From contig CAIOAT010000024.1 in assembly GCA_903856085.1 (NCBI GenBank), positions 3,180 to 67,179 on the forward strand: a stretch of 64,000 nt of DNA. Direction: 5' to 3'. Below are positions 49,401 through 64,000 of the stretch, piece after piece; the first letter of the stretch is position 1; each line of letters opens with the position of its first letter. The translations under genes and the position numbers were made by a program. This DNA is from Candidatus Omnitrophota bacterium (lineage in GTDB: Bacteria; Omnitrophota; Omnitrophia; Omnitrophales; Aquincolibacteriaceae). Under the pieces are notes generated by a model, which was not told the DNA's origin, did no database searches, and worked only from the letters and a program-made list of their open reading frames with translations.

Positions 49401-52400
49401 CGAGCGAGATCATCTTAGGTTGATATTCACTCAGCCCCATGAGCGAACTAAAAACATCCCCTCCCTCGCTTTCGAAAGCAACCACATCATAACTCCCATA
49501 GGGTTTGAGGATCTCCCTCAAAAATGCTCGCTGCGCAAGAAATCCATAGTTTGCCATCCCGGACATCCCTTGGGGAAAATGAGTGAAGAAATACGTGATC
49601 ACCACCACGCCAGAGCGATCCTCACCTTCTTCTTTCGGAAAAACCAAGAGACGGAAATTGTAAGTCGCCATATTGGAAAACAGTTGCTTCCCTTTTTCGT
49701 CATACACATTTCCTGTTATCTCAAGGGGCGCATCAGAGCCGTCCTTCTTTTCATTCAGTTTGTAGCTGTAGCCAGTTTTTTTGAATTCATCCCATTGCAA
49801 TTCCTGGCGGCTCACAGTTGCCGGGATTTCCGAGAGTGCAATAAATTTGAACTCGGCTTCCCGCCACGGATTCCGGACTCCAAAACGCGTATCTTTGACC
49901 CATTTATCCCGATACGGATTCACCACTCGCGTCACGGACCGGTTAATAAGACGGGTCACCACAAAATAGATCGCTCCTGCAACACCGGCTAATCCCGCGA
50001 ACGTGGATGCGAGCCGGCTCCACAAAACATCTAAGATCCCGACCACCAGGGAAGATACAAAAGTCGCGATCACCAAGTAACTTAAAAATCGGGCAGCGCG
50101 ATAAGAGAACTCTCGCCCCTTCGGGATTTTGATCAGCTTGCTCGCAACCATACCATTTTCAAACGCCGCGATCACTTGTTGAGCCGCAGACCCTGCCCGT
50201 CCCACCGTCTGATCTCCGGCAGTTCCATCCGTTAGATCCTTCACAAACGTTCTGAACGCTTCGGTGTTAAAAACCCCGGCCTCGAACAAAGTACCTTCTA
50301 ATCTTTGATCCGGACGTATTAAAATATTTTTCAGGGCACTTTCCTGCCCGGGCTGGTGCAGGTGGCCCCCCATCCAACCCAGCAATGCATCAAAATAGAA
50401 CGAAACAGTTTCTTTGTGATTCAGAAAGGTCGATAAATCTTCAGCCGGAGATGTCAAATAGCGTTTGAGCGTCTCCCTCGGAGTTTCGCTGGCCGCACTC
50501 CCCTGAATTCCAGGCTTGGATAAACTCAATTTGATCACGCGATTCGCAAGATCCACCGTCGCAAAATACGTTGTATTACCAAACGTCACCTTATCGTTGT
50601 TGATGGGATGATTCTGCCACCTTACATCCCAAGAGCTTCGTGTAGCGATAGAGGGCTTTCCGTCAGCAAATTCCGCCATCAAAAAGTGGCGGCCCCCCTG
50701 CCATTGAAACGCATAATTGCCCCTGCCATCCGCGCCCATGACAAGATCGACCGGCTCCCCGAGATTAAAGAAAATATCCTGCCCCCGAATCTCGGAGCGA
50801 GGCGAAGCGCCCATCTCTTTTCGAATCATGCGTACGACAGATCCCGCAGCCTTGGCCCAGGATTGGGATGGATCTTTTCTTTTTTCTTTCACCACTTGGT
50901 AAGCCAAAGCGACCGACGCTACGATCCCTAAACCCCCAAAGGCATAGCCTACGATTTCTTGTTCGATCGGCACTCGTTGAATCGGTTCGAAGAATTTGAT
51001 GCCATTTTTAGAATCCGCGATAATGCGATCAATATAGTAGTCACCGTACTCATCAAAAACCTGCATATCCCAGACATTCTGCCCCGTCTGAGTATTGCGC
51101 TTAAGCTCTCCCTGGATGCTGAAACCTCTCTGAAATGTTGACGTGCTGACATCCATATAATTTTTTGTTTTGAGATCGGTGAATTCTCGATTGAGAAGCT
51201 CTCGAAGATCCGCCGCAAAAGATTCATCCGGCATCCCCGTACGGAACAGATACGCCTTTCCGGCAGGCTTTACGCCCTGCAGTTTCAAAGCCGTTACAAA
51301 ATTGGCCACATCGCTGCGAAGATCGCCGAGAGTCTTTCGATCTCCCTGATCATCGTACGGTCTGAAATGTGCTGCCACAAGCCGGTTATCAGTTGTCGGG
51401 AGCATAAAAATATTGCATTGATTCCCCTGCGCTGGCTCGACGGTGAATTTCCCGCGACTGATTACTCCCGCCTCATCTTCAGCAAAACTAAAACCACCTT
51501 CGCCTTGCTTGAATGCCTTTCCATCGCTGATATGGAACATAAGGCCTTGAGCTTTTGCGGGTGCCAGGGGTTGCAATCCCGGGGCATTTGTTTGCACTAA
51601 GGTGGCGGCTATCGTTTGCCCAGCGGTTTGAAACGGCGCTGCGACCAAGCCTGCACCTGCGCCTAAAAATATCCCCAGGAAACCGCGACGCCCCATCTGC
51701 CCCCGCAATTCAGGACGAGGTGGGAGAGCCATGAGACTGTTATGTTTTTCGGTTGCCGCATCAATAACATCAATCGCAGGCTCACCAAATTTCTCAGCAA
51801 GAACTCTTAAAGATTCGAACGCCGTCGGAGCATTTGTTCGATCCCCGGCAGCCACCATCGCCGCAAATTTCAGCATGGCAAAAGCCAGTTCGCCACGCGA
51901 CGTTTTCCGTCCTTCGATGCGATTTGTTTCTTCAACAGATTTTTCCAATAAGCCACGGATAGAAATATCCGCCCCCGGCTTAAGCGCATCACTTTCCATT
52001 AGCCGCAAACTGATATCACAAATAAAATCAGGGTCTTGTCCCTTCGACATGGCCGTGAAACGGTTCATTTTGTTCAAGACATCTTGAGAGCGAGCTTCAT
52101 CCAAGGCATTTTGGCCATGGGCCTCAAACTCGTTTTCCGCCTCTCTCGCAAGCTTGAAATCAACTACAGGTGCCGTAATCGCTGATAAAAAGTTTAAAAT
52201 TGAATGGGCAGCATATCCACGGCTTGTATTCCCCCTCTGAAGCAGGTTTTCGGCCGCTCGGACACGCGCCAGAGTATCAACAATCACATTATGATCAGGC
52301 ATTTTTCCGTTATACAGACCCTCCATCAGGCCAACACTCTCAATAGCCGACTGGGTCAAAGCTTCCTCGGCTTCTGCCGCAGTCCTGATCTGCATTTCCC

Positions 52401-55400
52401 AACGCGCATCGGCAAATGCTTTTTCAAAAGAAGACCTTGCATTAAATTCACGGTCGAACGGCTCCAAAAATCGGGACAAGCTTTTCACCGTCAAATCACT
52501 CAACGCTGAAGGCCTCTTGCCATTCAAGTCATCCAATAACTTTTTAGCTTCTATAAAATCACCGGTAGCCATTGCTTGTTGCATTTCATTCAATAATCTT
52601 AAATTTTCACTCCCCGCATCCCTCACCTCGGCGCGCTTTATGGATGAATCACTGATAGCAATCTCAGGATAGATGTATTCAAATAACAGAGCGCTCAGAT
52701 GCTTCTTGTCTTCATTCTGCCGTCCGAATCCTCTCTGGCTTGCCTTATAAATTTCACCTACTTGAGTAGCCGTCAAAGTCGAGTAGTTGTACGCTGAAAG
52801 AAATAGACCTAGCGCAAAAATAATGGCCGTCGGATCGTCTTTTTTGAATGTAACATTTCCGTCGGCAGTACGATCCGAAAGGATGAACGGCCAAATAAAA
52901 TCCTCACCGTAACCTGACGGCAAATTATGTTCCGACGCGACATCCGGCATTCCAGTTTGGCCTATCAAAAGCCCCAACATGACATCCACGCGGGTGGAAG
53001 GGAAAGACGCATGAAGCGCGGCACCTATGGCAAGCGCCGTTTTCCCTGACCCGAAATTGTCAAACACCAAGATCGGCTTATTGACGTCCAACTGTCCTTC
53101 GGCCTGTTTCCGGATCATTTCAATAAATTGCGCCACAGCCGTTCCTTTGTCCCTATCGCTCTGCAGTTTGAGGAACTCGCTAAAAAAATACTTCTGAATC
53201 TCATTCCCGCGTCTTTGCAAATCTCTTATATTCTTAAATTTTTTGTAGGCCTCTTGCAGTATCCGTTCGGATTCCGCGTAAATAACTTTGTGGGTCTCTT
53301 CGAATTCGGCGGGGCCTCGTTCCACCGTGATGGGCAATTGCCCTCGCCAAAAAGCCACCGCCGTCTTGTCCGTATATTGACTCACTGGGAGGATCGCTCC
53401 ATCCCTCCACACCGGCATGAGTTGATGATCAGGAAAACGCGATTTTATTTCCTTATGGATCGCGGGCAAATAGAGGAGGAACCATTTTTCTCCGCTATCC
53501 AGGCCGTAAGGAAGTCTCAATCTGCCGTTCCCCTCCAGGAAATCTTTTGTTTTTTCCTGGAAATTTTCCTGGATTTCACTTAACCCTAATTTGCCAATAA
53601 CTCCCTGAAGGACTGCAGCGATCTCTTGCCGGGTCAGGGGATACTGTCGGCCGTCTTGGTCATGGGGCAACAGTGACTTGGGCGGGAGAAATTCCATCTT
53701 CCCCAGTTCTCCGATCGTCCATGTTTCCTTGCGGGAATAATAGTCGACGAGATGATCCACGAGAGGCTGGGGATCATAGACACCAACGCCCGCCGGACGA
53801 ATGTTCATGGGCCCGGCTGCCTTTTTAGTCTGAAATGTTACAAGCTCGAAAGCCCTTTGAAGCCATTGCTGGATTCCGGGAGCTTCAGCTTGCGCTCCCG
53901 CAATCCCCCCTCGCACCTCGGAGCGAATACTGGAAAGCATCGCCTTAAAATTAACAGGCTGCTGGAAGCGTGCGAGATGGACCAACGTTCCTTTTTTAAT
54001 ATTTTGCGAGAGGGAGACTGGCTCCGGGACTCCCGGAAGCATGAGGTACCTTTCGAAAGGACTACTGATCTCCAAAAATCCTCTATTCTCCGAGCCCGAT
54101 GCATTATCCACGCCATAAAGTCCCAGACCGCGCCCCGGTTTTCCTGACGTAGAAACACCTTTTTCAAGCATAAGCGGTATATTCCGCATGCCAGGTCCGT
54201 TGTCATACACAAAAAGCTCCACCCCCTTATTACCTTGAATCTGAACTTCCCGGCCCACCAGGATTCCCTGGATCTCTCCGGCTCTCGGCGGAAGCGGCTG
54301 ATGCTCTTGCAAGGAAACCAAAAGATTCGCCAAATGTTCTTCGTCAAACGCCTGCGCCCCTTTCAGATGGTCAATATTGTCCATAAGTTCTTTAATCATA
54401 AATTCGATCAAAGTGCGTTGATCGTAAGTTTTATAATCAGCATGCGCCACGTAGAGGAAAGGAGCCGGATCATTAAGCCAGCCGATTTGGTTCAAAAGGC
54501 GCTTCACTTCTTCGAACCCTAAAGAAAAGCCCTGGCCACGAAGCAAATCTTTTGCCCGAGAATCTCCGGCGAGAGAATCCTGCAGCGCCTGCAGTACGTC
54601 ACCCTCCACATCCCAAGGCGTTCCACCGGCCCGCGCCTCGGCACGAATTCCAGGCTCTCGTTCCAGCATAACCCCAAGATAAACAGGCCGGAGCGCCCAC
54701 TCCTTCCGGAGAACCTTCTCATCTGTAGCCAGCTCTTTAGCCCACGCTTCAATATCGGGAACATATTTTGGATCGAAACCTTCGAGCACGTTTACCGCCC
54801 CCCTCTGTCGAGCCGAGCCTAAAACTTGGGTCGTTGTGTAAAATTCCCTTGGCAAACCCTCTTTATTGAGCCAGTAACCGTTTGGACGCTCTTCCTTGGA
54901 AGCCTGAAAATTAAAATCACGCAAAAGGACATCGACCAGAGCAGGATTCGAGGTGGTAAATGCATATTTCACGTCTTTAAACTTTCCAACGAAAATCCCG
55001 ACGAGTTGCTTGAGAAGACCCTGACCTCCCAGGCCTAATTCGAGATCTTGATTGATATAAGTACCGTAGATGGCCATGACACCATCCACCTCTTTGGCAT
55101 ACAGGAACATATCGCTTGCTGCAAAGGCGGGTTTCTCTTTCTCATTCGGATTTTTAAAGAAAAGATCGATTCGTTTTGTTGTAGCGTTGTCTTCTACCTG
55201 CATTTCAAATGTCAACTTCGCACCATTCCGCCCCTGCAACACAATCTCGCGGGGCTTCAAAACATCTTGCGCCAATTTCTTCCAGTCAAGCGAGCCCAAT
55301 ATTTTGAGATTCGCAAGCATCTCGTTCATTGTAGGGACCGTGCTTTCAGAACTTCGCTTTTTTTCTGTCAGGAGGAGAAGAATAACCTGCAGATAACCCA

Positions 55401-58400
55401 GACGAAAAACGTCGGGAAGGATTTCCATTTCCTTGGCAGTGATGGGCTCTCCTGTCGCCCCTTGGTATGCCACAAAGAACTGACGGACTTTGTCCAAAGC
55501 TATGGAAGTCCCGTCTTTTTGATAGCGAAGGAGTATGGCACTGGCAAAATCCGCAACTCGCGCATCGGGGTGGGCATATTCGAAGTCAAAAACGCCGTTT
55601 ATTTGATTCTGCCCATATCGAAGGTTCCCCTGATGGAAATCACCGTGGACAATCGTGCGCGGAAGTTGATCGAGAACTCGAGGGGTTAAATGAGTCCTGA
55701 TCTCTTTGACCTGCTGCTGGATCAGATCAAAATTTTCGACAAAAATCTTCTCGGTCGGCGTCAGAGGCGGCCCGCGTTGCTGAATCTCTTGGCGCATCGA
55801 TTCGAGTCTCTTTAAGCTCCCTTCAAAATCTGTCACGGGAATCAATGGCGGCCATTCATGCCCCTGATAGGATCTTCCGGGAAGATCCAAGTTCCGCGTC
55901 GCCATATGGATCTTGGCGAGCAATTGGGCAGCCAATTCCAAGTCCCCACCCTCCACTTGCCCCCAGTCATATTCTTTTCCGTCTATATAATCAGAGAGAA
56001 CGAAGGGTTTCCCATCGATCATGATAAAATTTTCATTTTGAAGTGTTGGGCGGATGACGCTTACGGGGATTCCGGCCGACTTGAGATTCTCCAATAAACC
56101 CGCCTCCCATTGGATCAAATCTTCGGTGTTTCGATAAAGGGGCGCTTTTAGGACATACCGCCCGGTTGCATCCTGGACCGTATAGACATTCGCCCTGGGT
56201 GTCGGCTGGATCGTCACATCACCCTTCAAACCATAATTCTTCGCGACTATTTCTTGCAGGCGCTGGATATCGACACGGACGGGTTCGGTTTGTACATCGG
56301 CGCGGGTTTCGGCGCGTGCGGCATTCGGTGTTGCCGATGCCGCCAAGGCCCGGCTGATCGTTAAGACACCTTTTTCCGGCTGCGTTTTAGAAATAGCAAG
56401 GGTCCAATGATATGTTCCACCTTGTTGTGACGCTCCCGTCTGACGTGAAAAAACAGCTGCTGTCCCGTAATTTTCGGCCAAATGCAAAAATTGATCCAAC
56501 CCTTCTCCAGCTACAGTATTACTCCCCCTTACTTTTCCTGATAGCGCCTCCTGAACATTCATGCCTTCCCCGCCATCAATCGTAATTCCAATAATTTCAT
56601 GCCCATGTTTTACAAAAATAGCAACCCCAAGACTATCGCTTTGCGGAAGTCCGTGTTGGAACACATTCTCAACCGCAAAGAACATCGAGTTATATAAGCT
56701 TGGCGCAGCTTGAGGATGCAGTTTGTCACTTCCAATCCGCTTCATAAGATTTTGAACAACTTCAGAGCTTCGCTTCCATCGATCCTGTCTCCCGTACGGA
56801 ACATCCGGAGTGCGAAGAATTTCCAAGGCAACCGCTCCATAATCGTTCAGCGCCTTAATGTGCGGCTCAAGAGTCTCCCTCTTAACCAAAGCAGACCACA
56901 AATTATAAATTTCATTTACAAAGGAAGGCTCCAGCCCTTGGAATACCCCATCATCACTTGCCCAAACAGCACGTGCTTCAAGGCGGGATTGATTCACGCG
57001 GCTCTCGGAGCGCACAGGAACAAAAACTGTGCCATACGAGCCTACACTGTTCAGAAGGATATTCCCGGCCTTGTCCATTTTCATCGTCATGTGCGTCCGG
57101 GATACTGACTTGAATTCCTCTCCCGCCGGCACGACAAGGTCAGCCTTAGGAGACCGCCCAATCACCAACTCCGCTTCTTTCAAGGAGAGTGGCTTCTCTG
57201 ATGCCCACGACCCATCCACAGCACGAGCCGTAACAAATACTCCATCGGTCGTACTCGTCACATCAACATAAACCTGGCCGGCAAGCTGCATACGCAGCGG
57301 CAATTCCGTAGGGACATCTCCGGTAATTCCTTGCGAGGTGATGGTTCTCTTAGGGGTCGCTGCCAAAGCGGTTAACTTTTCAATCATCGGGTCGAGGTTT
57401 CCCGTGAGCCCCGCGTCATCTTCGTTTCTCTCCTTCAACTTCACCAGGCGATCAATAACCCGACGGATCAATACGGGTTTCCGGCCTTTGAATTCGCTCA
57501 CAAATTGATCGCTCAAACCACCCTTGATCGCTTTTAAAGCGGCATCTTCGATCCTGCCTTCGGCAAGTCCGAACGCGATCGAAGCCACTTCGTCCTCTTT
57601 ATTTTCACCCAACCGTTCAGCGAAAAGTGTCGGCCCCACCCCTTCAAGGGAAGGATAGAGAGCATGGGCTTTCATCTTGTCATAGAACGCACGCGCATCC
57701 GCTTCGGAAAGAAAGTTGATAACGATCGGCGATATCTCATCGGGATCATAGGAGAACGTTTTGTCGCGAATGCTTTGTTTTAAATATTTAAAATTGATCC
57801 CCACGCCGCTGGATGCAACCGCCGTTTCCTTCACGATCCTGACCGCATCGTCAAAATGCGTCGGCACGACATTAAGATAAATTCTCCAGTTATTTCCAGG
57901 ATCTTTATCGTAAAACTGTAAATTCTCGTACGAATGCCACCAGAATTTCCATCCAACTCCCGTACCGAACTCCTCAGGATAAAAGCCTTTTAATACCTCC
58001 GTCTTCTTTCCCGAAACTGGCTCCTGGATAAGGTTCGCATTCTCGCTGCTCAGATTCTCGACCCTGAACTGGCTTGCACCGATCCGCGTAATCTTTATGG
58101 ATTTCCTGGGGTCTCCATCCTTAAGCCCGAATCCTTCCGGATTCGAAACACTTTCACCCCTTGCAATACCTCTTATTTTGTCCAAGACTTCATCGGCATC
58201 ACGATTGTCCAATATGTAGGGACTCATCGCTATTCTTTCAAAGATGCTCGGGTCAAGGAGGTAGAAGTCCGAAGGATTTTTTACATACTGACGCGCACGA
58301 CTAATGGCAGGATCAAGCCTTACAGCGAGGTTGATATTGCCTCTATAAATATCGGGATCGTAAGCCCGCAGCTCAAGAGCCTGATCTACGCCGAATTTGA

Positions 58401-61400
58401 TCTGAATCGGTACGCTGTAATTCATTTCAACGGAAGCGCCCGGCGCAAGAGTAATGCTCTGGGGCGTTTTGGATTGGACCGCTTTAATGACAGGAGAAGA
58501 GGCTTCCAAAGCATCAAGGACCGCGCTGCTACGCCTGGCGAAATCCGTATCATCAAACTGCATGGACTGAAGCGCGGCGATCTGCCTGTCGATTTTTGCA
58601 AGCAACTCTCCGGCTATCTTTCCGGCAGCGCTGATTTTGCGGACATCACCCGTTGCTTGGATTGTCTTAAGCGCCCGCTCCACTGTCCGACGGTCATAAT
58701 TCAAGCGCGCGCGAACCATGATATCCCGCTTCAGGAAATACGCCTGAACCTGAAGCGGTGTCAATTCGAGGACATTCAAAAAGCGCGCTTCTTTGGTGCC
58801 GGATTTTTCTCCCTCTAACAATCGTATGCCCTGCTCATCGTTGAAAGATCCTAAAGACGCAAAATCACCTTGGACCCAATCCTGCCAATTTTCACGGCAT
58901 GCGCGTACAGATAATTCCAAAATATCCTTCAGCTGACTCTTCTGCTCTTCAAAAAAGATCGAGATCCTTAGTGCCGACTCGGAATCAAGACCGGTCAGAT
59001 CAGGCTCGAGGGAGTTTACCCGCTCCATAACGCGCGAAATCTTTTCCCCATCGATCCCCTGCGGCCCTGTGAGAGCATCAAAAATGATGGAGGAAGAAAC
59101 TAGTCTTCCATAAACCTTGTTCAATCCTGCGGAAGCCAGGTCATAAAGAACGTAGCGTTTGACGCCATCGATGACGGGCGTTTCCATGTTATGGTCAATC
59201 CCAAAATCATGAGCCTTGGTCAACGCGAGGAAAACCATAAGATTTTCTATCCCGGATCCGGTAGTTTCGGCAGGTAATTCTGCGGCCGTCAGGGTTTTTG
59301 CATCGCGAACCAGTAGTGCCCTTACTTTGTCCGTTTTTGGATCGTTGACGCCGGCGCCTTTTAAAAATTCATCCCATTCCTGGCTGAACTTTCCGGGGAC
59401 ATTATCTTTTTGCAACGAAGAAATCTCAACCCAAGGAGGAACATTGACCCCTAAAGCATCCGCGAGCTTATAGGCCCGCAATTCGTCATTCGTATCGGCA
59501 GGAACATATTTCAAATACCAAACGAGACCTGTTGCCGGATCTCTTAATCTCCAAACCCCTGTTTTCATTTTCACTTCGATCACCAAGTCCTGTAGAGCCG
59601 GCGGCGTTCTTTGTCGTGCGCTCTGACTACCGGCAACCGCCACGACTTCCCGCTCAACAAACTCCGTACCGTAGGACCCCGTAGATGTAAGCTGAATATT
59701 GCCTTTTTTATCTACCATGACGATCATGTGATCACGAGAGATCCGGGTATCTAAAAGCACTTCGGCCTGATGGATGCGTCCAATCTTGATGGTTGTTTCA
59801 ACCCCCTCAGGAACCGAGTAGGTCCGAGCCTTTCCATTCGATGCAACAGTAACTTGCAAACTCCCCGATGGACTGCGATTAACATCCACATAAGCCTCGA
59901 CTCCGGCGAGCTTCATCCGGAACGGAAGCGCCTTGGGTGTCTCACCTTTAATATGGGTCGCTTGGACATTAACAAGCGACGCCTGACCCGCCACAAGCTC
60001 CGCAGATTCACCAAGCCCTGGTTTCCGGATTTCGGATCTCACTTCAGCGCGAGTGGCGGCCGTTTTGAGTTCTAGCACCATAAAATGCCGTCCTGTGTTA
60101 TCGTTCATTTTTTTGTCCGTCGGGATCTTGAACCCGAACCGGTCCGCGTTCTCTTTGATCATGGCGTAACTGCCATCCTGCCCCTCTCGCATCTCCCCAT
60201 AGACAGGAAGACCGGGAAACTTATCGCGGATCTCGCCCATGAGTTGCAACAAGAGCTTCCCTCCGATCCCCGATTTACGCTGTTCCGGGTCGACGGCAAG
60301 ATCCATGACATAAATAATGTCACGCTTGGTGTCCGGGTCATACCCCACATAAGCGATGACATACCCCATCAATTGACCGTCCCGGTAATAACCTCGGCTC
60401 AGATTCTTACGGCGATCACCTTGCGCCATTTCATTCAGCGCAGCGCGAGCCAAGGAGTTTTGAATGCCGGACAATCCCTGGAGAAGACTGGGAGCGAGAT
60501 TCCCGTAGACCTTCCCTTCCAACCTGCTCACATCCAAAATATCCTCGTTATCGAGAGAATAAATTCCCGTCGCAGGAGCTGGGGCTAGCGGCATTTTTAC
60601 ATCCAGCGGAATTTCCGTGACCTCGTCACTTTTTTTATCCGTGTAACTTAATTTCAATTCCGACATAGTTTCATTCTCGACAGTGTTTCCCGCCAGACGA
60701 TAATCGCTGTTATCCACCCCAATCCTCAACTTGGGTAAAAGCGGCAAGCCCTGGCTCTTTTGATCCCGCGCATAGCTCTTACTGGTCGGAAACTTCGCCA
60801 TATAACGCTCGAAAAACTGTCTGTAAGTTTCCGTCACGAAATCATTCCACGTTTTTCCTTTACCGATGTCTTTTCCTTCATTCATCTTCCGAATAAAGTT
60901 CGGATCCGCTTCAATATTATCAGCCGCCATGACCACACCCGTACGCCCCACGGCCTCAAACTGGGAGTCCTTGAGTGCCTCAAAAAGATTGAAGTGATCG
61001 GGTTGACGCTGGAACGCAGCATCCAACTTGGGGTATTTCTCTCCCAAGGGCCTGTCCAGGGTGAGCACCGACGTGATGATGCTCTTATCATAAAGATTTC
61101 CAAGCTGATCTTTGACTTGAACTGTCAGCGCAAAGATCGCCGTCGCAGGATGGGAATAAACCCCTTCCTTTCCATCTCCGAACCCCATACAACTAGGCGT
61201 CTCATCTCCTGCAGTTCTGGACCGGTAATCCGACTTGGGATAGATCTGAGCTGTGAAACGATCACCGAGCCCCTTGCCATCAAGAGCTTTCTTCATCGAA
61301 AGGAGGAATTTGTTGTCCTCCTCACCCCGCGCAGACTCCGGTCGTGCCATGATCGATTCATACCGTGCAACGAGGATATCCCGAAATTGGATCTCGACCG

Positions 61401-64000
61401 GCCTGTAGGGAGGGAATTTGTTCTCGGCAAGAAATTCGCGCATTCCGGAGTACTCTTTCTTAAGCGGGATCGCCAGATTCGTGACAAGGTATTTAAGATT
61501 GAATTTTCGAAACATCTTTTGGTTCCACAACATCTCACCCGCCAACGCCCCGGCATTTTCGGCATTCGCCACCACCTTTTGATGGGTCAACGGATCGACT
61601 AAATTCAGACTGTTGATATAGACCGCTAATTTCTCCCCATCCATAATCCCTGATTGAAGCAGCAGGCTCTGCCAAAGTCCCTGAAACTCATTACTGTTCT
61701 TCAGGTTCTCCATACCCCAAGTGTCAAGATTGCTGTAGAGGACAACCTTCATCGGCTGAAAGGACATGCGCGAATCCATTTTCCCGAGAATCATCGCATC
61801 CCGGTACTGAGAAGCCGTCAGATCGACATATCCATGCTCCTTGATAACTTGCGCCTGAACGGCCACAGCTTCCGGGGTTGGGCTGGGTCCCACGTCAGGA
61901 ACCACCCAATTATGAGCGCCCAGGGCCTGCTGAACTGAGTCTTTGGTATAGGAAGCCTTTGCCTGCATGAACTTATAAGGATCAAGAATAAAATCCATGA
62001 TGGCCCGAGTATTACTCACAGTCCCCTTAAAGATGATATCCGTCACATACTGATATTTTTTCAACGAATCCGGATCGCCCGACTTTTTCCACGGCTCGAT
62101 GGCCGCCAGCAATTCTTTGTTGCTCAAAATGGTCACGACTGACTCAATGCTTTCAAAATTCGTAAAAGAACGGAATTCATAAAAAGGATCTCTGTCAACG
62201 CTCACAAGGAGTTTTTCAAAATTCTCATTCCCTCTGAATAATTCCGCACTTTCGTTCAACTGAACGCGCCAGCCGGAATTGTATCGAGAAGCGATCCAAA
62301 CAAAACGCTGAAAGCCGTTTCTCCCGTGAATGACGGATTTATCGTTTCTCACCTGAGGCATCACGTTCTTAAAAAAATTCTCTTTCTGCTCTACAGACAG
62401 CCCCTTATTGTTATAAAGTTCGACAGCGGAATCCAATCCGATCAAGCTTTCATGCCGGGCATTGGGATTAACGTAAAAAAACATCGCGCGATACCCGAAG
62501 GTCTTTGCATATTGACGAACGGGCACCACCACATCGCTCCAGTTCCACAAACCGCCGTCCTGAAGCGACTGCACAAGACCGCTATAGAACGACTCTTCCT
62601 CCTCCGGTGTCATTTTCTGTTTCAGATCCTGCCCGGACAACTGTTCCCAGAGCGCAAAGATCTCGAGGGAATTCAAGTTCCGGCCGACTCGGGATCCCGT
62701 AACGACATGCGCAGGGTCCAGCTGATCAAGAACAGCAGCCATGGTCCGATAAGCCCTTTCGCCCGGCGTCTCATTCGTGGGAGCGTTCTCCTTCGTCTGA
62801 GCAATCGCCCTGGAAATAGCTTCCATCGTCATACGGGACAGGATCCCATCGGAGATCTTTCGAGCGACCGTTTTATCGAGAGCCAGTCCCTGGATCATAT
62901 CCGACTCGAGCGCACTTAAGCCCGAAAGCGCCTGAGCCGCGTCGGGGCCGAACCGGTCGGTGATTTTCTTGCGGACGCGTTCCAACGAAGCTTCGCGAGC
63001 TAATTTTTCGGCGCTGGGACTATAATTTTCAAGCGGCTCCAAACTGATTTCTGTCAGTGCCGCCCGGTAGGCGTTCATGAGGAGCCGGTCAAATTCAGCA
63101 CGAACTCCGGACGCTGCCGCCGGGCTTGCATGGTCCACGGCAAAATCAACCAGCGTTTCGATCTTGGAAAGACCAAAGTGCGATCCGGAATAATCCTTTT
63201 CATCAAGGATCCCGTTGACGGTGTCCGCCACCTGCGGGATCGCGGCAGAAAATATCCGGGCCACTTCCTGATTCCCGGGCTGGAGCCTTTCAAGCTCCTC
63301 ACGAACAACGCCCGCGGCAACCTTTAGGGAGCTCAGAGAATTGTCCAAGGTAGGCTGATCCGCAATACGGCGACAAAATAGCAAGGTGTTGTTCAGGCTC
63401 TCGCGGAGAGAAGAAACATACGCGTCCCACGCAAAGAACATCGCGTCTTCGCGCGTCATAAAACTATTTAAACGAAGTCTGATCTTCTCGACAGCCGCCG
63501 AGGCATTTGGGTAACTCGCCGTATCGAACTGGAGACGGATGAGGTGGCTGAGAGCCTTTGCGTAAACACTCTTTTTTTCCGTAGAACCGAGCTTGCTCTC
63601 CATCACATCCAGCAGGTCCCCGGCCGCCTGCACCAATTGAGCACGCAATTTCTCGTCCTTATCCCGGAGATCCTTATCTTCCAATCGCGATCTCTCGCTA
63701 ACCAACAGGATTGAAAAGACGTGATTCATCACCTCGGCGAGGATTTCCGGATTAGGCGACGGATCCTCTGCGATTACATGCAGGAGATCCTGCATTTTCT
63801 TTAAAACATTGGTCCTGATTGATCGAAATCCCCGCGCGGATGAATCGGTCCCCGTGCGTTCCTCATAAATAACGGTCCCTGCCATCTGCCGCCATAGAGG
63901 GGCCGCCAAGGTGTCACTGTAAAGCCGCCGTATCACAGCCTCAGGAGCATCAAGGTCGGACGCTCGTATCCCGTTTTTTGCGTCTTGCAGACGCCGTTTT
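43414..64000 (-). CDS. Giant multidomain protein (>6860 aa, 5' end beyond window): GNAT, 2x FHA, 2x GHKL-ATPase motifs, APH-type kinase, P-loop, hydrophobic segments, Ham1/ITPase-like domain
   Basis: Uninterrupted minus-strand frame from 64000 to the stop at 43414; the frame is still open upstream of the track's GTG at 63936. Approximate domain positions in nt: GNAT-like 60114-60384 (QRKSGIGGKLL); FHA 59649-59814 and 57009-57189; GHKL-like 56379-56619 (ITIDGGEGM) and 54039-54369 (VYDNGPGM ... GRGLGLYG); APH-type 55359-56259 (HGDFHQGN, DFE); P-loop ~53040 (FDNFGSGKT); hydrophobic segments 51636-51690 and 49947-50088; Ham1 48714-49215 (VATQNPRKVE, AEDSGVEVAALAGAPGIYTNRY). Confidence 0.85.
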   Translation of the reverse strand, partial: KRRLQDAKNGIRASDLDAPEAVIRRLYSDTLAAPLWRQMAGTVIYEERTGTDSSARGFRSIRTNVLKKMQDLLHVIAEDPSPNPEILAEVMNHVFSILLVSERSRLEDKDLRDKDEKLRAQLVQAAGDLLDVMESKLGSTEKKSVYAKALSHLIRLQFDTASYPNASAAVEKIRLRLNSFMTREDAMFFAWDAYVSSLRESLNNTLLFCRRIADQPTLDNSLSSLKVAAGVVREELERLQPGNQEVARIFSAAIPQVADTVNGILDEKDYSGSHFGLSKIETLVDFAVDHASPAAASGVRAEFDRLLMNAYRAALTEISLEPLENYSPSAEKLAREASLERVRKKITDRFGPDAAQALSGLSALESDMIQGLALDKTVARKISDGILSRMTMEAISRAIAQTKENAPTNETPGERAYRTMAAVLDQLDPAHVVTGSRVGRNLNSLEIFALWEQLSGQDLKQKMTPEEEESFYSGLVQSLQDGGLWNWSDVVVPVRQYAKTFGYRAMFFYVNPNARHESLIGLDSAVELYNNKGLSVEQKENFFKNVMPQVRNDKSVIHGRNGFQRFVWIASRYNSGWRVQLNESAELFRGNENFEKLLVSVDRDPFYEFRSFTNFESIESVVTILSNKELLAAIEPWKKSGDPDSLKKYQYVTDIIFKGTVSNTRAIMDFILDPYKFMQAKASYTKDSVQQALGAHNWVVPDVGPSPTPEAVAVQAQVIKEHGYVDLTASQYRDAMILGKMDSRMSFQPMKVVLYSNLDTWGMENLKNSNEFQGLWQSLLLQSGIMDGEKLAVYINSLNLVDPLTHQKVVANAENAGALAGEMLWNQKMFRKFNLKYLVTNLAIPLKKEYSGMREFLAENKFPPYRPVEIQFRDILVARYESIMARPESARGEEDNKFLLSMKKALDGKGLGDRFTAQIYPKSDYRSRTAGDETPSCMGFGDGKEGVYSHPATAIFALTVQVKDQLGNLYDKSIITSVLTLDRPLGEKYPKLDAAFQRQPDHFNLFEALKDSQFEAVGRTGVVMAADNIEADPNFIRKMNEGKDIGKGKTWNDFVTETYRQFFERYMAKFPTSKSYARDQKSQGLPLLPKLRIGVDNSDYRLAGNTVENETMSELKLSYTDKKSDEVTEIPLDVKMPLAPAPATGIYSLDNEDILDVSRLEGKVYGNLAPSLLQGLSGIQNSLARAALNEMAQGDRRKNLSRGYYRDGQLMGYVIAYVGYDPDTKRDIIYVMDLAVDPEQRKSGIGGKLLLQLMGEIRDKFPGLPVYGEMREGQDGSYAMIKENADRFGFKIPTDKKMNDNTGRHFMVLELKTAATRAEVRSEIRKPGLGESAELVAGQASLVNVQATHIKGETPKALPFRMKLAGVEAYVDVNRSPSGSLQVTVASNGKARTYSVPEGVETTIKIGRIHQAEVLLDTRISRDHMIVMVDKKGNIQLTSTGSYGTEFVEREVVAVAGSQSARQRTPPALQDLVIEVKMKTGVWRLRDPATGLVWYLKYVPADTNDELRAYKLADALGVNVPPWVEISSLQKDNVPGKFSQEWDEFLKGAGVNDPKTDKVRALLVRDAKTLTAAELPAETTGSGIENLMVFLALTKAHDFGIDHNMETPVIDGVKRYVLYDLASAGLNKVYGRLVSSSIIFDALTGPQGIDGEKISRVMERVNSLEPDLTGLDSESALRISIFFEEQKSQLKDILELSVRACRENWQDWVQGDFASLGSFNDEQGIRLLEGEKSGTKEARFLNVLELTPLQVQAYFLKRDIMVRARLNYDRRTVERALKTIQATGDVRKISAAGKIAGELLAKIDRQIAALQSMQFDDTDFARRSSAVLDALEASSPVIKAVQSKTPQSITLAPGASVEMNYSVPIQIKFGVDQALELRAYDPDIYRGNINLAVRLDPAISRARQYVKNPSDFYLLDPSIFERIAMSPYILDNRDADEVLDKIRGIARGESVSNPEGFGLKDGDPRKSIKITRIGASQFRVENLSSENANLIQEPVSGKKTEVLKGFYPEEFGTGVGWKFWWHSYENLQFYDKDPGNNWRIYLNVVPTHFDDAVRIVKETAVASSGVGINFKYLKQSIRDKTFSYDPDEISPIVINFLSEADARAFYDKMKAHALYPSLEGVGPTLFAERLGENKEDEVASIAFGLAEGRIEDAALKAIKGGLSDQFVSEFKGRKPVLIRRVIDRLVKLKERNEDDAGLTGNLDPMIEKLTALAATPKRTITSQGITGDVPTELPLRMQLAGQVYVDVTSTTDGVFVTARAVDGSWASEKPLSLKEAELVIGRSPKADLVVPAGEEFKSVSRTHMTMKMDKAGNILLNSVGSYGTVFVPVRSESRVNQSRLEARAVWASDDGVFQGLEPSFVNEIYNLWSALVKRETLEPHIKALNDYGAVALEILRTPDVPYGRQDRWKRSSEVVQNLMKRIGSDKLHPQAAPSLYNSMFFAVENVFQHGLPQSDSLGVAIFVKHGHEIIGITIDGGEGMNVQEALSGKVRGSNTVAGEGLDQFLHLAENYGTAAVFSRQTGASQQGGTYHWTLAISKTQPEKGVLTISRALAASATPNAARAETRADVQTEPVRVDIQRLQEIVAKNYGLKGDVTIQPTPRANVYTVQDATGRYVLKAPLYRNTEDLIQWEAGLLENLKSAGIPVSVIRPTLQNENFIMIDGKPFVLSDYIDGKEYDWGQVEGGDLELAAQLLAKIHMATRNLDLPGRSYQGHEWPPLIPVTDFEGSLKRLESMRQEIQQRGPPLTPTEKIFVENFDLIQQQVKEIRTHLTPRVLDQLPRTIVHGDFHQGNLRYGQNQINGVFDFEYAHPDARVADFASAILLRYQKDGTSIALDKVRQFFVAYQGATGEPITAKEMEILPDVFRLGYLQVILLLLTEKKRSSESTVPTMNEMLANLKILGSLDWKKLAQDVLKPREIVLQGRNGAKLTFEMQVEDNATTKRIDLFFKNPNEKEKPAFAASDMFLYAKEVDGVMAIYGTYINQDLELGLGGQGLLKQLVGIFVGKFKDVKYAFTTSNPALVDVLLRDFNFQASKEERPNGYWLNKEGLPREFYTTTQVLGSARQRGAVNVLEGFDPKYVPDIEAWAKELATDEKVLRKEWALRPVYLGVMLEREPGIRAEARAGGTPWDVEGDVLQALQDSLAGDSRAKDLLRGQGFSLGFEEVKRLLNQIGWLNDPAPFLYVAHADYKTYDQRTLIEFMIKELMDNIDHLKGAQAFDEEHLANLLVSLQEHQPLPPRAGEIQGILVGREVQIQGNKGVELFVYDNGPGMRNIPLMLEKGVSTSGKPGRGLGLYGVDNASGSENRGFLEISSPFERYLMLPGVPEPVSLSQNIKKGTLVHLARFQQPVNFKAMLSSIRSEVRGGIAGAQAEAPGIQQWLQRAFELVTFQTKKAAGPMNIRPAGVGVYDPQPLVDHLVDYYSRKETWTIGELGKMEFLPPKSLLPHDQDGRQYPLTRQEIAAVLQGVIGKLGLSEIQENFQEKTKDFLEGNGRLRLPYGLDSGEKWFLLYLPAIHKEIKSRFPDHQLMPVWRDGAILPVSQYTDKTAVAFWRGQLPITVERGPAEFEETHKVIYAESERILQEAYKKFKNIRDLQRRGNEIQKYFFSEFLKLQSDRDKGTAVAQFIEMIRKQAEGQLDVNKPILVFDNFGSGKTALAIGAALHASFPSTRVDVMLGLLIGQTGMPDVASEHNLPSGYGEDFIWPFILSDRTADGNVTFKKDDPTAIIFALGLFLSAYNYSTLTATQVGEIYKASQRGFGRQNEDKKHLSALLFEYIYPEIAISDSSIKRAEVRDAGSENLRLLNEMQQAMATGDFIEAKKLLDDLNGKRPSALSDLTVKSLSRFLEPFDREFNARSSFEKAFADARWEMQIRTAAEAEEALTQSAIESVGLMEGLYNGKMPDHNVIVDTLARVRAAENLLQRGNTSRGYAAHSILNFLSAITAPVVDFKLAREAENEFEAHGQNALDEARSQDVLNKMNRFTAMSKGQDPDFICDISLRLMESDALKPGADISIRGLLEKSVEETNRIEGRKTSRGELAFAMLKFAAMVAAGDRTNAPTAFESLRVLAEKFGEPAIDVIDAATEKHNSLMALPPRPELRGQMGRRGFLGIFLGAGAGLVAAPFQTAGQTIAATLVQTNAPGLQPLAPAKAQGLMFHISDGKAFKQGEGGFSFAEDEAGVISRGKFTVEPAQGNQCNIFMLPTTDNRLVAAHFRPYDDQGDRKTLGDLRSDVANFVTALKLQGVKPAGKAYLFRTGMPDESFAADLRELLNREFTDLKTKNYMDVSTSTFQRGFSIQGELKRNTQTGQNVWDMQVFDEYGDYYIDRIIADSKNGIKFFEPIQRVPIEQEIVGYAFGGLGIVASVALAYQVVKEKRKDPSQSWAKAAGSVVRMIRKEMGASPRSEIRGQDIFFNLGEPVDLVMGADGRGNYAFQWQGGRHFLMAEFADGKPSIATRSSWDVRWQNHPINNDKVTFGNTTYFATVDLANRVIKLSLSKPGIQGSAASETPRETLKRYLTSPAEDLSTFLNHKETVSFYFDALLGWMGGHLHQPGQESALKNILIRPDQRLEGTLFEAGVFNTEAFRTFVKDLTDGTAGDQTVGRAGSAAQQVIAAFENGMVASKLIKIPKGREFSYRAARFLSYLVIATFVSSLVVGILDVLWSRLASTFAGLAGVAGAIYFVVTRLINRSVTRVVNPYRDKWVKDTRFGVRNPWREAEFKFIALSEIPATVSRQELQWDEFKKTGYSYKLNEKKDGSDAPLEITGNVYDEKGKQLFSNMATYNFRLLVFPKEEGEDRSGVVVITYFFTHFPQGMSGMANYGFLAQRAFLREILKPYGSYDVVAFESEGGDVFSSLMGLSEYQPKMISLGRGRAPDERFEKLIAGVKFGKPRDFDIARRIAELGTAYGTIPNQPGVETNRAEVRKQVAASAEILQVLVATQNPRKVETWKKYFSSFPYIRVITPAEAGIDAKAPEEVSPSYEDTARRKAEFYRKQAAGKIAGPFYVMAEDSGVEVAALAGAPGIYTNRYAERDAAYRELYNRDPLAATAQKIKDELDKRHGVSRDIKTRGAMVILDPDGRANVLTGEGHYKVPSELAKVPAEESALHSILVQPDTKKNYPSMTPGEKAKYPTADVRLAAEAASFLSRQHFQNADLVTPYAKALQAMRVYFDENHVAVSAADAGRGGRGNVEGRVVMQDPDDPTPSPFIYLDFAGTPNLVFHLVPRLDVQVIELQRIENSGIDYEALEKTIGPKLKELAAANGMLLILASELAVGDLPLLGSLGRTDGAPYYHKAAPLADFGISLKLVDEMNGIYDIFVNGKYSGYTRIFVDPSGQWIMDRKSFTAEAAASNNLLDSLVNYLDGLNAKWSDKPYDGLTIQDDLGEGLDSLIDKDASEFGSRIRQSRDQRIETLRSQGHWYANYQKFFLVDAILDFVGYGIASEITRAEFASRVQTAANYFEALKRHPEVQKEFLDFLSHYTVQITDRNRNSPLFVAATNFLAGKWLNDTQVIEQMDLRNGNRVLNDHPWFGPEAHPESDALLNLPYQPRKKIKVLLIGAAEKPGRNSKAVLFRDMLRQALPSGTEIELVANDIQFQPVYFAYDGAKDQFQRKEMFQFDANGMWQDPETGVWYQRINIQDPKANITASPQVFDASHQYDVVINARLAVQYFRDPSALANILQNSQRLVRDQGMLLYDTHDADRADVYYRDDAGEVVYSGAVPFRDVDVVARDLKVFFSTLNAYSPVLERAYRFALRSIGQNGRRVLAKRILLNMAAEVIRDPYALAALALTGIDSENFPDDLFPGMILGRIREKSFMYQWDQFDPDSLIQTANSNDDAKRLFYTKAGVERIPFTETTRQPGFDTKATLYHGEELEATYGMLDGRPAIQIWNSKEGKGVLLVLPARSEVRSVESRAGAKKISKENPILEAATIVTRMSDLDHLVEGPLLEAAKFLFERNIRTFQSSANMDDVAWGRPAYLSGDYDTLSLENQQIVLANQWRIVTTETGHKSFVIEWPIKNKMTVADLQDLSLKTVSSLKRQPLLWGTMTLKEVEREAKELKEKKLINVARLRLQPMFYETEKYGALPPVIFDKKTQTFYASQELKDNADKFLATTGAQQIGKLPAQNSGMKSFEELRAEASWNVPDLRKWNILKGWGGQQYAAKVTAMTDEQFGKEWMKFFADPLAIVPLNNGERLLASKNGQEFLRGFTSFLAIPGNSSHYFSGAKELPVIKYGLALSIKKKQPGMAEQAAEKEYYERLGRYRVLLRETILRWDRLVSASALSPNRAESRIGLKLETPDDFEDLIALLGFVPDPWERIEMIRKYENSLKIGGGLASTYLHRVLKPRLSDGELSVRLEAIHVLSGFGRNGTEDILIEALQKVIARLSKDLKIEALLLSDHGVLSEADQDKLHIIKVQVERDQKELRALAEAAANVGVRFKTGEKSAGSKLKAFFEGLKSLEDVSKPSLAFQIISEYMAYVLPSIEQELAAGVTPRSGKSSRKDLTRKSGKAESVVSPAKPVTAQPKTPEIPEGKSKAGPKIRSEVRLANMPLMELPKIDAAAILVLMRDGANPDKVRARMMEGGLAGFEKEKSLYGQIADQFMASLLGLDVEALTGLTSSRPELRLRLAGFAGYGDPDILAGNIVAGVMLGSFVAVRGARVGGEDVGKIQRFTSAIIDRINEMPGSGVPMIVDNGPDSELVIKALRGKIKIPSLVVLYDEKHPVGRGWNEVADVVMKYRYSERKSADAIVAGVINASKDEALMAFLTTELGVKQNGILSILADFNSEDNPELKNLVCAAVVLINKIFASASPMDQGLMKVNPGMLITKLKEKGIDLLGLSSKNGVFVMNMEALALEFAAQQDIEKSA

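Follow-up and report, generated by a model that had tools for sequence, protein, structure and literature searches.

The giant open reading frame (ORF) on the minus strand of the stretch of Candidatus Omnitrophota DNA analysed here (64,000 nucleotides, referred to as the window) contains two paralogous modules that belong to the FHA superfamily (Table 1). Both are genuine but atypical forms of an established signalling module and do not amount to a novel type of system. In bacteria and eukaryotes, phosphothreonine (pThr) is read mainly by FHA domains, and we consider it probable that the pair should be read as a whole in the following manner: the modules are ancient paralogous FHA domains of minimal size (~100 residues), in which an N-terminal hairpin stands in for strands b10 and b11 and which serve in pThr docking.

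Table 1. Position of the two modules, the linkers and the neighbouring domains in the window
Feature	Nucleotides	Strand	Remarks
Giant ORF bearing all modules	43414..64000	-	6840 aa from first in-window start codon; open at window end
Double linker RAEVRSEIR, aa 1296-1304	60025..60051	-	Boundary between the GNAT segment and the segment starting with module 1
FHA-like module 1, aa 1329-1427	59656..59952	-	Paralogy with module 2; Pfam FHA 14.9 bits
Putative degenerate linker SARQR, aa 1439-1443	59608..59622	-	Between module 1 and the conserved 'WYLK' domain
Conserved 'WYLK' domain, aa 1444-1720	58777..59607	-	Directly follows module 1
FHA-like module 2, aa 2204-2306	57019..57327	-	Pfam FHA 27.5 bits, AlphaFold, Foldseek
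Linker RSESR, aa 2309-2313	56998..57012	-	Separated from the last strand of module 2 by two residues
APH / CotS-type phosphotransferase (protein-kinase-like fold), aa 2583-2821	55474..56190	-	PF01636 92.2 bits, E 5.6e-26

An Old Duplication

Residues of the giant ORF are numbered from a GTG codon at nt 63936 (minus-strand ORF 43414..63936). On complete contigs, the protein comprises 8243 aa; 1403 N-terminal residues fall outside the window, and the repeat search covered the 6840 in-window residues. A preliminary description of the DNA had placed the modules at aa 1336-1427 (nt 59656-59931) and aa 2211-2306 (nt 57019-57306) and had proposed that they are paralogs. The translations match the residues quoted there exactly, and the similarity begins ~7 residues upstream of those boundaries (IKGETPKALPF / ITGDVPTELPL). 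Paralogy is borne out by pairwise BLASTP (38% identity over 104 aa, E 7e-19) and by a Smith-Waterman score of 139, compared to 25.5 +/- 4.8 for shuffled sequences (n=2000, maximum 65, z = 23.6). A tiled self-comparison of the 6840 aa recovered the pair as the sole internal repeat at E < 1e-3 (1329-1424 vs 2204-2303, 37.6% identity, E 1e-14), and an HMM built from the pair detected no third copy in the giant ORF. At the nucleotide level, no similarity was found between the two modules, which indicates that the duplication is old. Each copy is composed of an N-terminal hairpin piece (~aa 1331-1353 in module 1, ~aa 2208-2230 in module 2) and an FHA core with strands b1-b7 (~aa 1356-1427 and ~aa 2231-2306, respectively).

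Membership in the FHA Superfamily

In comparisons with the Pfam FHA family, PF00498 (gathering cut-off 20.7 bits), module 2 scores 27.5 bits (E 4e-6, profile positions 2-46 of 67) and 29.2 bits in the whole-protein scan. Module 1 alone remains below the cut-off (14.9 bits, E 0.038, profile positions 2-49 of 67) and is therefore assigned to the family via its 38% paralogy to module 2. A profile built from five modules retrieved 93 proteins from a database of 5.8 billion sequences (best E 7e-15), all of which are annotated with PF00498 or PF16697. Canonical FHA domains are collinear with module 2 over ~78 residues, from b1 to the G-T strand (module residues 31-108), and in the alignment of 96 sequences the columns of G60, S79, H82 and S100 show no variation and those of R61 and R80 hardly any. 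AlphaFold predicts module 2 to be a single compact all-beta domain (pLDDT 87.8, pTM 0.80), for which the best Foldseek matches in the PDB are the FHA domains of Chfr, Rad53 (FHA1), KIF13A/B, RNF8 and CHK2 (probabilities 0.95-1.00); in terms of E-value this support is weak (best 1.3e-2), and the TM-scores are < 0.5. The first AlphaFold model of module 1 likewise consists of beta-strands only, in an order identical to that in the model of module 2.

It is hardly credible that the modules represent a lineage-specific beta-domain outside the FHA superfamily, which resembles it in G-R and S-R-x-H by chance. A profile of the window copies only found no relatives in 5.8 billion proteins, GTDB genomes and JGI metagenomes, matches of the modules to PDB sequences are marginal (E 0.02-0.2; the best match of the window-only profile is the EmbR FHA domain, E 0.022), and a first, low-confidence model matched no FHA domain. 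However, such a chance resemblance would have to account for a score of copy 2 above a curated cut-off, for 93 FHA proteins among 93 profile matches, for signature residues in register throughout the collinear alignment and for FHA domains as the top structural matches of the confident model. The assignment of both segments to the FHA superfamily in the preliminary description is thus upheld by profile and structure prediction.

A Truncated Fold with a Predicted N-Terminal Hairpin

Strands b1-b7 follow each other in canonical order in each copy, and the canonical C-terminal third appears to be missing: the modules lack an eleven-strand sandwich with b8-b11 after b7, the model has 8-9 strands, and only 68 columns are well aligned by Foldseek (rmsd 3.4, TMq 0.45). 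The modules had been described as a separate N-terminal unit of ~45 aa ahead of a full FHA domain of the usual type, an anatomy to which we assign little probability. It is true that Pfam matches the C-terminal half of either module and that the aligned canonical FHA proteins have nothing equivalent to the N-terminal piece; yet in copy 2 the match extends no further than profile position 46 of 67, nothing that matches b8-b11 follows G-T-x-F-V, where the linker comes immediately, and only ~22 residues are left over, because canonical b1-b2 already align to module residues 31-53. Moreover, AlphaFold places the whole module in one domain of ~100 aa, with a pLDDT of ~90 in the N-terminal piece.

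In the model of module 2, the strands 14-17, 22-29, 32-39 (b1) and 45-50 (b2) are joined by turns of only 4, 2 and 5 residues and hence form consecutive hairpins. Combined with the canonical FHA sheet order, b2-b1-b11-b10-b7-b8 (PMC4157861), this predicted arrangement puts the N-terminal hairpin (LP.RM.LAG..YVDV) most likely in the place of b10 and b11 beside b1. With the hairpin in this place, the domain would topologically be a circular permutant of the FHA fold without b8 and b9. When the N-terminal piece of two relatives, P0007 and P0008, was moved to the C-terminus in silico, the FHA scores rose by 4 and 10 bits, respectively, a gain reached by 1 of 200 shuffles; for P0007, the Pfam score became 50.4 instead of 45.5 bits and the coverage reached the profile end. 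The same operation on the window copies yielded no gain, neither with HMMER (26.6 vs 26.8 and 17.4 vs 17.9 bits, shuffles being equal) nor with hhalign (score equalled or exceeded by 32 of 40 column shuffles). Support for a permutation of the window copies therefore comes from the strand order in the AlphaFold model and from weak similarities chained via P0007, whose N-terminal piece resembles that of module 2 (p 0.013) and the canonical C-terminal strands (p 0.006). In the literature searched, no natural permuted FHA domain was found. Kinase-activity recorders have been built with an engineered, circularly permuted FHA1 that keeps its response when its target peptide is phosphorylated (bioRxiv 10.1101/2024.09.11.611894); an FHA fold with relocated termini can thus remain responsive, although this permutant is man-made and has its ends at positions 53/54 of FHA1 and not after b7.

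Phosphate-Binding Residues

Both copies carry Gly-Arg in the b3-b4 loop (G1386-R1387 and G2260-R2261), a column pair that is invariant for Gly and nearly invariant for Arg in the 96-sequence alignment, and Ser-Arg-x-His in the b4-b5 loop (S1400-R1401-D-H1403 and S2279-R2280-T-H2282), which completes an Arg-Ser-Arg phosphate triplet; in FHA domains, the phosphate-binding triplet is Arg-Ser-Arg/Lys (PMC4157861). In the b6-b7 loop, the canonical Asn (S/T-x-N-G-T) is absent from both, and G-S-Y-G-T is found instead (G1420-S-Y-G-T1424 and G2299-S-Y-G-T2303); the Asn column is opposite Gly in ungapped alignments and opposite Tyr when a gap is allowed. The signature GR...SR.H...NG/GT.V originally noted for both copies is therefore to be amended: G-R, S-R-x-H and G-T-x-F-V are present in each, whereas the Asn of NGT is not. 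With a significant FHA match and conserved Arg, Ser and His, this Asn is the only residue of the expected binding site that is absent. The identity of the G-S-Y-G-T loop in the two copies argues for a constrained binding surface. Docking of the modules in a pThr-dependent manner is plausible.

For the FHA-like domains of T3SS YscD/EscD type, a phospho-independent role has been proposed. It seems rather unlikely, yet deserves consideration, that the modules are similarly degenerate scaffolds of FHA fold, which do not read pThr and act in phospho-independent protein-protein interaction or as a structural cap. The loss of the b6-b7 loop Asn from both copies and the truncation of the fold would fit, as would the score of the YscD family PF16697 (Yop-YscD_cpl), which ranks second among Pfam families for both copies (18-20 bits, cut-off 33.2 bits), and no Hanks-type Ser/Thr kinase was detected in the window part of the giant protein. 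Evidence against degeneration is, however, the retention of G-R, S-R and H, residues that form the phosphate-binding triplet (PMC4157861), at only 38% identity between the copies, as well as a substitute loop that is invariant between them. Furthermore, the FHA domain of Kanadaptin, in which His replaces the Asn, has a phosphopeptide mimic and a sulfate ion in the binding site of its crystal (PMC4157861), and relative P0007 couples a module of this kind with a PP2C phosphatase. The cytoplasmic domain of YscD/EscD shares with the modules a divergent FHA fold within a large assembly protein, but the modules score far below the 33.2 cut-off of its family and keep the Arg/Ser/His signature.

Linkers and Neighbouring Domains

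Throughout the giant protein, domains are separated by a short linker of sequence R-S/A-E-x-R, in places degenerate, which also closes each module; the pattern R[SAP]E.R occurs 14 times in the giant ORF, compared to 0.37 expected. The distance from the G-T strand to the linker is 2 residues in copy 2 and 11 residues in copy 1, where SARQR presumably is a degenerate linker, judging from its position, at which relatives carry RSExR or GARLA immediately ahead of 'P..DL.V', the conserved start of the 'WYLK' domain. Upstream of module 1, a GNAT domain (PF00583) is located at aa 1183-1239. Copy 2 closes the same 1004-aa segment that contains copy 1. Directly after some linkers, internal twin-arginine-like signal sequences are seen.

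The 'WYLK' domain accounts for 18 of the 21 matches of the 1004-aa segment among 1.84 billion representative sequences, nearly all of them giant proteins. Its invariant residues are a Lys (in WYLK), an Asp (position 109 of the first sequence), a Gly (S-G-I-E), an Asn (H-N) and an Asp (Y-D-L); no match was found in Pfam, NCBIfam or the PDB, and no similarity to the APH domain or to any kinase. A kinase-type domain in the same polypeptide, as had been postulated, does exist in the form of the APH domain (PF01636), which lies in the second linker-delimited segment after module 2; its motif HGDFHQGN (aa 2764-2771) / DFE is intact, and sub-threshold NCBIfam matches point to CotS and homoserine-kinase. 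APH-family enzymes are mostly small-molecule kinases. A Hanks-type Ser/Thr kinase (PF00069) was not detected in the window part of the giant ORF, and PP2C was found neither in the window part of the giant protein nor in three other window ORFs (aa 4079-4895 level), nor in 18 neighbouring ORFs that cover most of the window. In relative P0007, the order is PP2C (PF13672, 38 bits), FHA, linker and then the 'WYLK' domain, as after copy 1.

Possible Function

The arrangement could support phospho-signalling in the following manner: Both modules would be docking sites for pThr peptides, each at the C-terminal end of a unit that R-S/A-E-x-R linkers delimit, copy 1 directly before a conserved, possibly kinase-like domain and copy 2 at the end of the same 1004-aa segment. 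After phosphorylation by kinase-type domains of the same protein, they may tether or regulate the adjacent enzymatic segments, in a putative phosphorylation-dependent assembly with a kinase in cis. An extended version, which we regard as unlikely, holds that the modules are natural FHA permutants capping the units of a polyprotein. The giant protein would be cleaved, or at least hinged, at the R-S/A-E-x-R linkers, which fits the twin-arginine-like sequences after some of them; the FHA caps would then read pThr marks written by kinase-type segments of the same precursor, and thereby re-assemble or regulate the released enzyme segments.

Architectures of the FHA-kinase(-FHA) type are known from Rad53 and Chk2, and bacterial sets of Ser/Thr kinase, PP2C and FHA proteins comprise mycobacterial FhaA/GarA/Rv1747 and Fha1-PpkA-PppA of the T6SS. 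Here, too, two FHA-type modules bracket a segment, the first domain of which may be kinase-like, and the combination of PP2C, FHA and 'WYLK' domain in P0007 resembles the bacterial sets. In contrast to these systems, the window part of the giant protein has no PF00069 or PP2C match, the 'WYLK' domain between the modules gives no match to a known kinase, and everything is fused in one polypeptide of > 8000 aa. With the FHA family at large (PF00498; Rad53 FHA1, M. tuberculosis EmbR, Chfr), the modules share the beta-sandwich with collinear b1-b7, the G-R (L3-4) and S-R-x-H (L4-5) signatures and the Arg-Ser-Arg phosphate triplet; they differ in their size of ~100 aa without b8-b11 in canonical position, in the extra N-terminal hairpin and in the L6-7 loop, G-S-Y-G-T without Asn.

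Implications for Giant Omnitrophota Proteins

Giant multi-enzyme proteins of Omnitrophota have been described ('Archaeovorins'; the 'multi-enzyme metabolic cluster' class; bioRxiv 10.1101/2023.11.21.568195 and 10.64898/2026.06.07.730766); neither source mentions FHA domains, linkers or cleavage-site motifs. The protein studied here has a similar domain repertoire (GNAT, HATPase-like, methyltransferase/NTPase-type enzymes, TM segments), its neighbour genes cluster with proteins of Candidatus Omnitrophota MAGs, and relative P0002 is located on an Omnitrophota MAG contig; with 8243 aa, it is at the small end of the class.

Should the modules be no more than divergent FHA domains of the ordinary kind, one more domain joins a long list, which would be of modest interest. 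If, however, pThr is bound by the minimal or permuted form, the smallest functional FHA core would be defined, and giant multi-enzyme proteins would make use of internal Ser/Thr phospho-signalling. The giant-gene literature raises the question whether and where such proteins are cleaved, and the location of the modules at an over-represented boundary linker bears on precisely this question.

Two paralogous modules in the giant protein

The observation of duplicated FHA-type modules of ~95 residues in the giant protein is confirmed: the residues quoted in the preliminary description translate exactly, and the two copies are paralogous. BLASTP aligns module 1 with module 2 over 104 residues at 38% identity (E 7e-19), and the Smith-Waterman score of the pair is 139, compared with 25.5 +/- 4.8 in 2000 shuffles (z = 23.6). 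In the self-comparison that had been called for, here of the tiled 6840 residues, the sole internal repeat at E < 1e-3 pairs residues 1329-1424 with residues 2204-2303 (E 1e-14); no third copy of the module was found in these 6840 residues. Since the two copies have no similarity at the DNA level, the duplication is old.

Features of the giant ORF and a neighbouring gene, in window coordinates; residues are numbered from the GTG at 63936
Feature	Nucleotides	Residues	Strand	Remarks
Giant ORF	43414-63936		minus	6840 aa from first in-window start codon; open at window end
GNAT		1183-1239	minus	Pfam
Module 1	59656-59931	1336-1427	minus	bounds of translated stretch
'WYLK' domain	58777-59607	1444-1720	minus	common to 18 other proteins, nearly all giant
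Module 2	57019-57306	2211-2306	minus	bounds of translated stretch
APH / CotS-like phosphotransferase	55474-56190	2583-2821	minus	Pfam E 5.6e-26
R-[S/A/P]-E-x-R	43414-60051	1296, 1300, 2309, 2541, 3098, 3338, 3768, 4074, 4380, 4896, 5879, 6260, 6515, 6594	minus	linker motif
Internal twin-arginine-signal-like stretch, GRRGFLGIFLGAGAGLVAAPF	51631-51693	4082-4102	minus	directly after linker RPELR, aa 4074
Ham1		~4913-5103	minus	Pfam
Second very long gene	34393-41355		minus	2320 aa, GH94 supersandwich + catalytic domains

Assignment to the FHA superfamily

With the Pfam FHA model (PF00498), copy 2 scores 27.5 bits, above the cut-off of 20.7, whereas copy 1 gives a weak match (14.9 bits, E 0.038) that stays under this cut-off. 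For a profile of the two window copies, the top PDB sequence match was the FHA domain of M. tuberculosis EmbR (E 0.022). A five-module profile, comprising the two window copies and three modules from two relatives, retrieved 93 proteins from 5.8 billion sequences, all with precomputed PF00498 or PF16697 assignments (best E 7e-15). It was suspected that P0022 came top of this search because a permuted module is imitated at the junction of its tandem FHA domains; this was rejected, as the protein just carries two FHA domains.

When aligned with 92 of the retrieved proteins, module 2 runs collinear with the canonical domains from b1 through the G-T strand. In module 2 numbering, the columns of G60, S79, H82 and S100 show no variation, and those of R61 and R80 almost none. 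AlphaFold, provided with that alignment, predicts module 2 to be a single compact all-beta domain (pLDDT 87.8, pTM 0.80); an earlier run from a two-sequence alignment reached pLDDT 61, and the fold search on that model was uninformative. When the better model was compared with the PDB using Foldseek, the structural check that had been proposed, the top matches were the FHA domains of Chfr, Rad53 (FHA1), KIF13A/B, RNF8 and CHK2 (probabilities 0.95-1.00). These matches are partial, the best comprising 68 columns at an rmsd of 3.4 and a TMq of 0.45, and none has an E-value of 1e-3 or lower. The modules are thus a divergent and shortened variant, probably also a permuted one, of an already known domain.

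Anatomy of the modules and possible permutation

In the preliminary description, an FHA domain came after a ~45-residue unit in each module; the FHA part holds, but its C-terminal strands are missing, and the additional sequence amounts to only ~22 residues. In both copies, the Pfam FHA alignment ends at profile position 46 of 67. Between G-T-x-F-V and the linker there are 2 residues in copy 2 and 11 in copy 1, and no likeness to the canonical 'L..GD.i.iG...f.f' strands is found downstream of G-T-x-F-V in either copy. The canonical strands b1-b2 fall on module residues 31-53, with ~22 N-terminal residues left over (LP.RM.LAG..YVDV). In the confident AlphaFold model, this N-terminal piece forms strands 14-17 and 22-29 (pLDDT ~90), and a two-residue turn connects it to strand 32-39, which corresponds to b1.

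The N-terminal hairpin could occupy the place of the canonical C-terminal strands b10-b11. As a sequence test of such a permutation, the N-terminal piece was relocated to the C-terminus in silico and the modules were rescored. For the FHA module of P0007, a related giant protein, this relocation lifts the Pfam score from 45.5 to 50.4 bits and widens the covered positions from 2-46 to 2-67 of 67. Against an HMM of 86 canonical FHA sequences, the permuted modules of P0007 and of a second relative, P0008, gain 4 and 10 bits, respectively, with the alignment extending to the profile end; each gain is matched by 1 of 200 controls with shuffled N-terminal pieces. The window copies gain no HMMER score upon permutation, nor do they gain in hhalign, where 32 of 40 column shuffles score as well. 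The N-terminal piece of module 2 resembles that of P0007 (p 0.013), which in turn resembles the canonical C-terminal consensus (p 0.006); this transitive connection is the only sequence link, and a weak one, between the N-terminal piece of module 2 and the canonical strands. On balance, we lean towards a permuted topology of the window copies.

Phosphate-binding residues

In the FHA signatures as originally quoted (GR...SR.H...NG/GT.V), the Arg, Ser, Arg and His are kept, but the Asn of the b6-b7 loop is missing. The Arg-Ser-Arg triplet is intact in copy 1 (R1387/S1400/R1401) and in copy 2 (R2261/S2279/R2280), and both retain the His (H1403 and H2282). In FHA domains, the Arg-Ser-Arg/Lys triplet makes the phosphate contacts (PMC4157861). 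The b6-b7 loop reads G-S-Y-G-T in both copies, invariant despite the overall identity of 38%.

The main rival to phosphopeptide binding is that the modules act as a phospho-independent scaffold. The missing Asn in the b6-b7 loop and the truncated fold speak for such a scaffold; against it, both copies have kept Arg, Ser, Arg and His. In the crystal structure of kanadaptin, where a His replaces the Asn, the binding site contains a sulfate ion and a phosphopeptide mimic (PMC4157861); the missing Asn alone is thus compatible with binding.

The giant protein and its gene neighbourhood

On complete metagenome contigs (JGI 3300022555, 3300009502 and ENA ERZ27313068), the full product comprises 8243 residues and has no Pfam match on record; our analyses of the giant ORF cover the 6840 residues within the window, with 1403 N-terminal residues lying outside. 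In the window part, Pfam detects four families only, GNAT, FHA, APH and Ham1, and this domain set agrees with what has been reported on giant multi-enzyme proteins of Omnitrophota. The APH domain has an intact catalytic loop, HGDFHQGN, and a DFE motif; in NCBIfam, the CotS spore-coat family and type II homoserine kinase rank top, both far under their cut-offs. Residues 3101-3345 score 24 bits with HATPase_c, which is under the cut-off, and a HATPase-like identity guessed for residues 2323-2540 was rejected, this stretch being devoid of any Pfam match.

The remaining window genes are ordinary cellular ones (peptide deformylase, RNase G, a CCA-adding-type enzyme, MiaB, PgsA/PgpA and CinA), together with a type IV pilus set, a PAS histidine kinase and a 2320-residue GH94 protein. 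'Candidatus Omnitrophota bacterium' MAG proteins are present in the 90%-identity clusters of the neighbour genes. The GH94 protein is called cyclic beta-1,2-glucan synthetase by one source, and only a CitMHS transporter gene lies between its gene and the giant ORF.

Relatives and the 'WYLK' domain

Neither the module profile from the window alone nor the 1004-residue segment between two linkers (residues 1305-2308) found homologues among 5.8 billion proteins; as these searches also miss the window's own 8243-residue protein, the absence of close relatives is not strong evidence. Scans of GTDB genomes and JGI metagenomes with the module profile likewise returned no relatives. In a phmmer search of 1.84 billion representatives, the 1004-residue segment yielded 21 relatives, of which 18 match the 'WYLK' domain directly following module 1 and three match around residues 1990-2140; relatives of the FHA module are not among them.

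The 'WYLK' domain has no match in Pfam, NCBIfam or the PDB. After a local re-search, its alignment contains six invariant columns: the Lys of WYLK, an Ala, the Asp at position 109 of the first sequence, the Gly of the S-G-I-E motif, the Asn of H-N and the Asp of Y-D-L, the motifs being ordered 'WYLK ... SGIEE ... D....HN ... YDL'. This residue layout is reminiscent of protein-kinase-like folds, and we refrain from calling the domain a kinase. As a recognisable kinase it was rejected, the sole PDB match of interest, HipA, being non-significant (E 0.45); hhalign revealed no similarity to the APH domain of the giant ORF either (probability 0.1). Pattern scans for the domain again returned only P0002, which sits on a Candidatus Omnitrophota MAG contig, P0008 and P0012.

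In P0007, residues ~2500-3090 comprise, in this order, a PP2C domain (PF13672, 38 bits), a cryptic FHA-like unit, the FHA module, an RSEAR linker and the 'WYLK' domain. The stretch has the appearance of a Ser/Thr phospho-signalling cassette fused into a further giant protein, and its order is the strongest contextual hint that the modules take part in signalling by Ser/Thr phosphorylation. FHA modules are confined to P0007 and P0008 among the 20 giant-protein relatives that were examined; the adjacency of FHA and 'WYLK' is therefore occasional and no rule.

The N-termini of several relatives (P0001, P0002, P0005, P0007-P0011, P0013 and P0016) have a signal-anchor followed by a common conserved domain of ~550 residues (consensus '..IHIQDAH.N..AQ..I..L...L......V..EG..G..D'), for which Pfam gave no match in the one relative searched. 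In the window's own giant protein, the equivalent part lies beyond the window end.

Possible role of the modules

Two paralogous FHA-superfamily cores with intact phosphate triplets share the giant protein with a kinase-fold (APH) domain, and the interpretation in the preliminary description is supported in part. Segments carrying phosphothreonine, either from the giant protein itself or from partners, may dock on the modules, which would link adjacent enzymatic units to one another. Copy 1 could exert control over the adjoining 'WYLK' domain, and copy 2 closes the linker-delimited segment to which copy 1 and 'WYLK' belong. Rad53 has an FHA-kinase-FHA layout, to which the segment of copy 1, 'WYLK' and copy 2 bears a loose analogy.

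Linkers between domains and possible processing

Within the window, the giant ORF contains 14 instances of the pattern R[SAP]E.R, where 0.37 would be expected and none of 300 shuffles has more than 3. It is always positioned between recognisable domains, and no conserved residues flank the sites. Both FHA-like modules end at a short linker; in P0007 and P0008, too, each FHA module runs right up to a linker. The giant relatives P0001, P0002, P0004 and P0007 contain 6-18 copies of R[SAP]E.R, and P0008 (3966 residues) has 'GA[RS]L[AGST]' ten times instead, which suggests that the linker motifs are lineage-specific among giant proteins. 'GASLG / AASLG'-like strings are located ahead of the 'WYLK' domain in P0006 and P0011, and these, P0003 and P0008 belong to lineages that appear to use different short delimiters in equivalent places.

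R-[S/A/P]-E-x-R appears to delimit domains or, possibly, to be a site of processing. An arrangement of linker and twin-arginine-signal-like stretch, as at residue 4074 of the giant ORF, is also seen in P0002 (RSEMRQEEVQIFSRRNLLLGALGLSLGIG) and P0007 (RSEARLGEPLDHRGFLRGLLGAAVAL); Pfam gave no match for the two segments that follow the Tat-like signal. Internal signal-like stretches would make sense if the segments were released as separate polypeptides. The two Omnitrophota giant-gene papers (bioRxiv 10.1101/2023.11.21.568195 and 10.64898/2026.06.07.730766) mention neither the linkers nor FHA, and one of them states that the cleavage points are unknown; our literature search found no R[SAP]E.R-type pentapeptides in any relevant sense. 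The recurrent linker motif is a more unusual feature of the giant gene than the modules and merits a study of its own.
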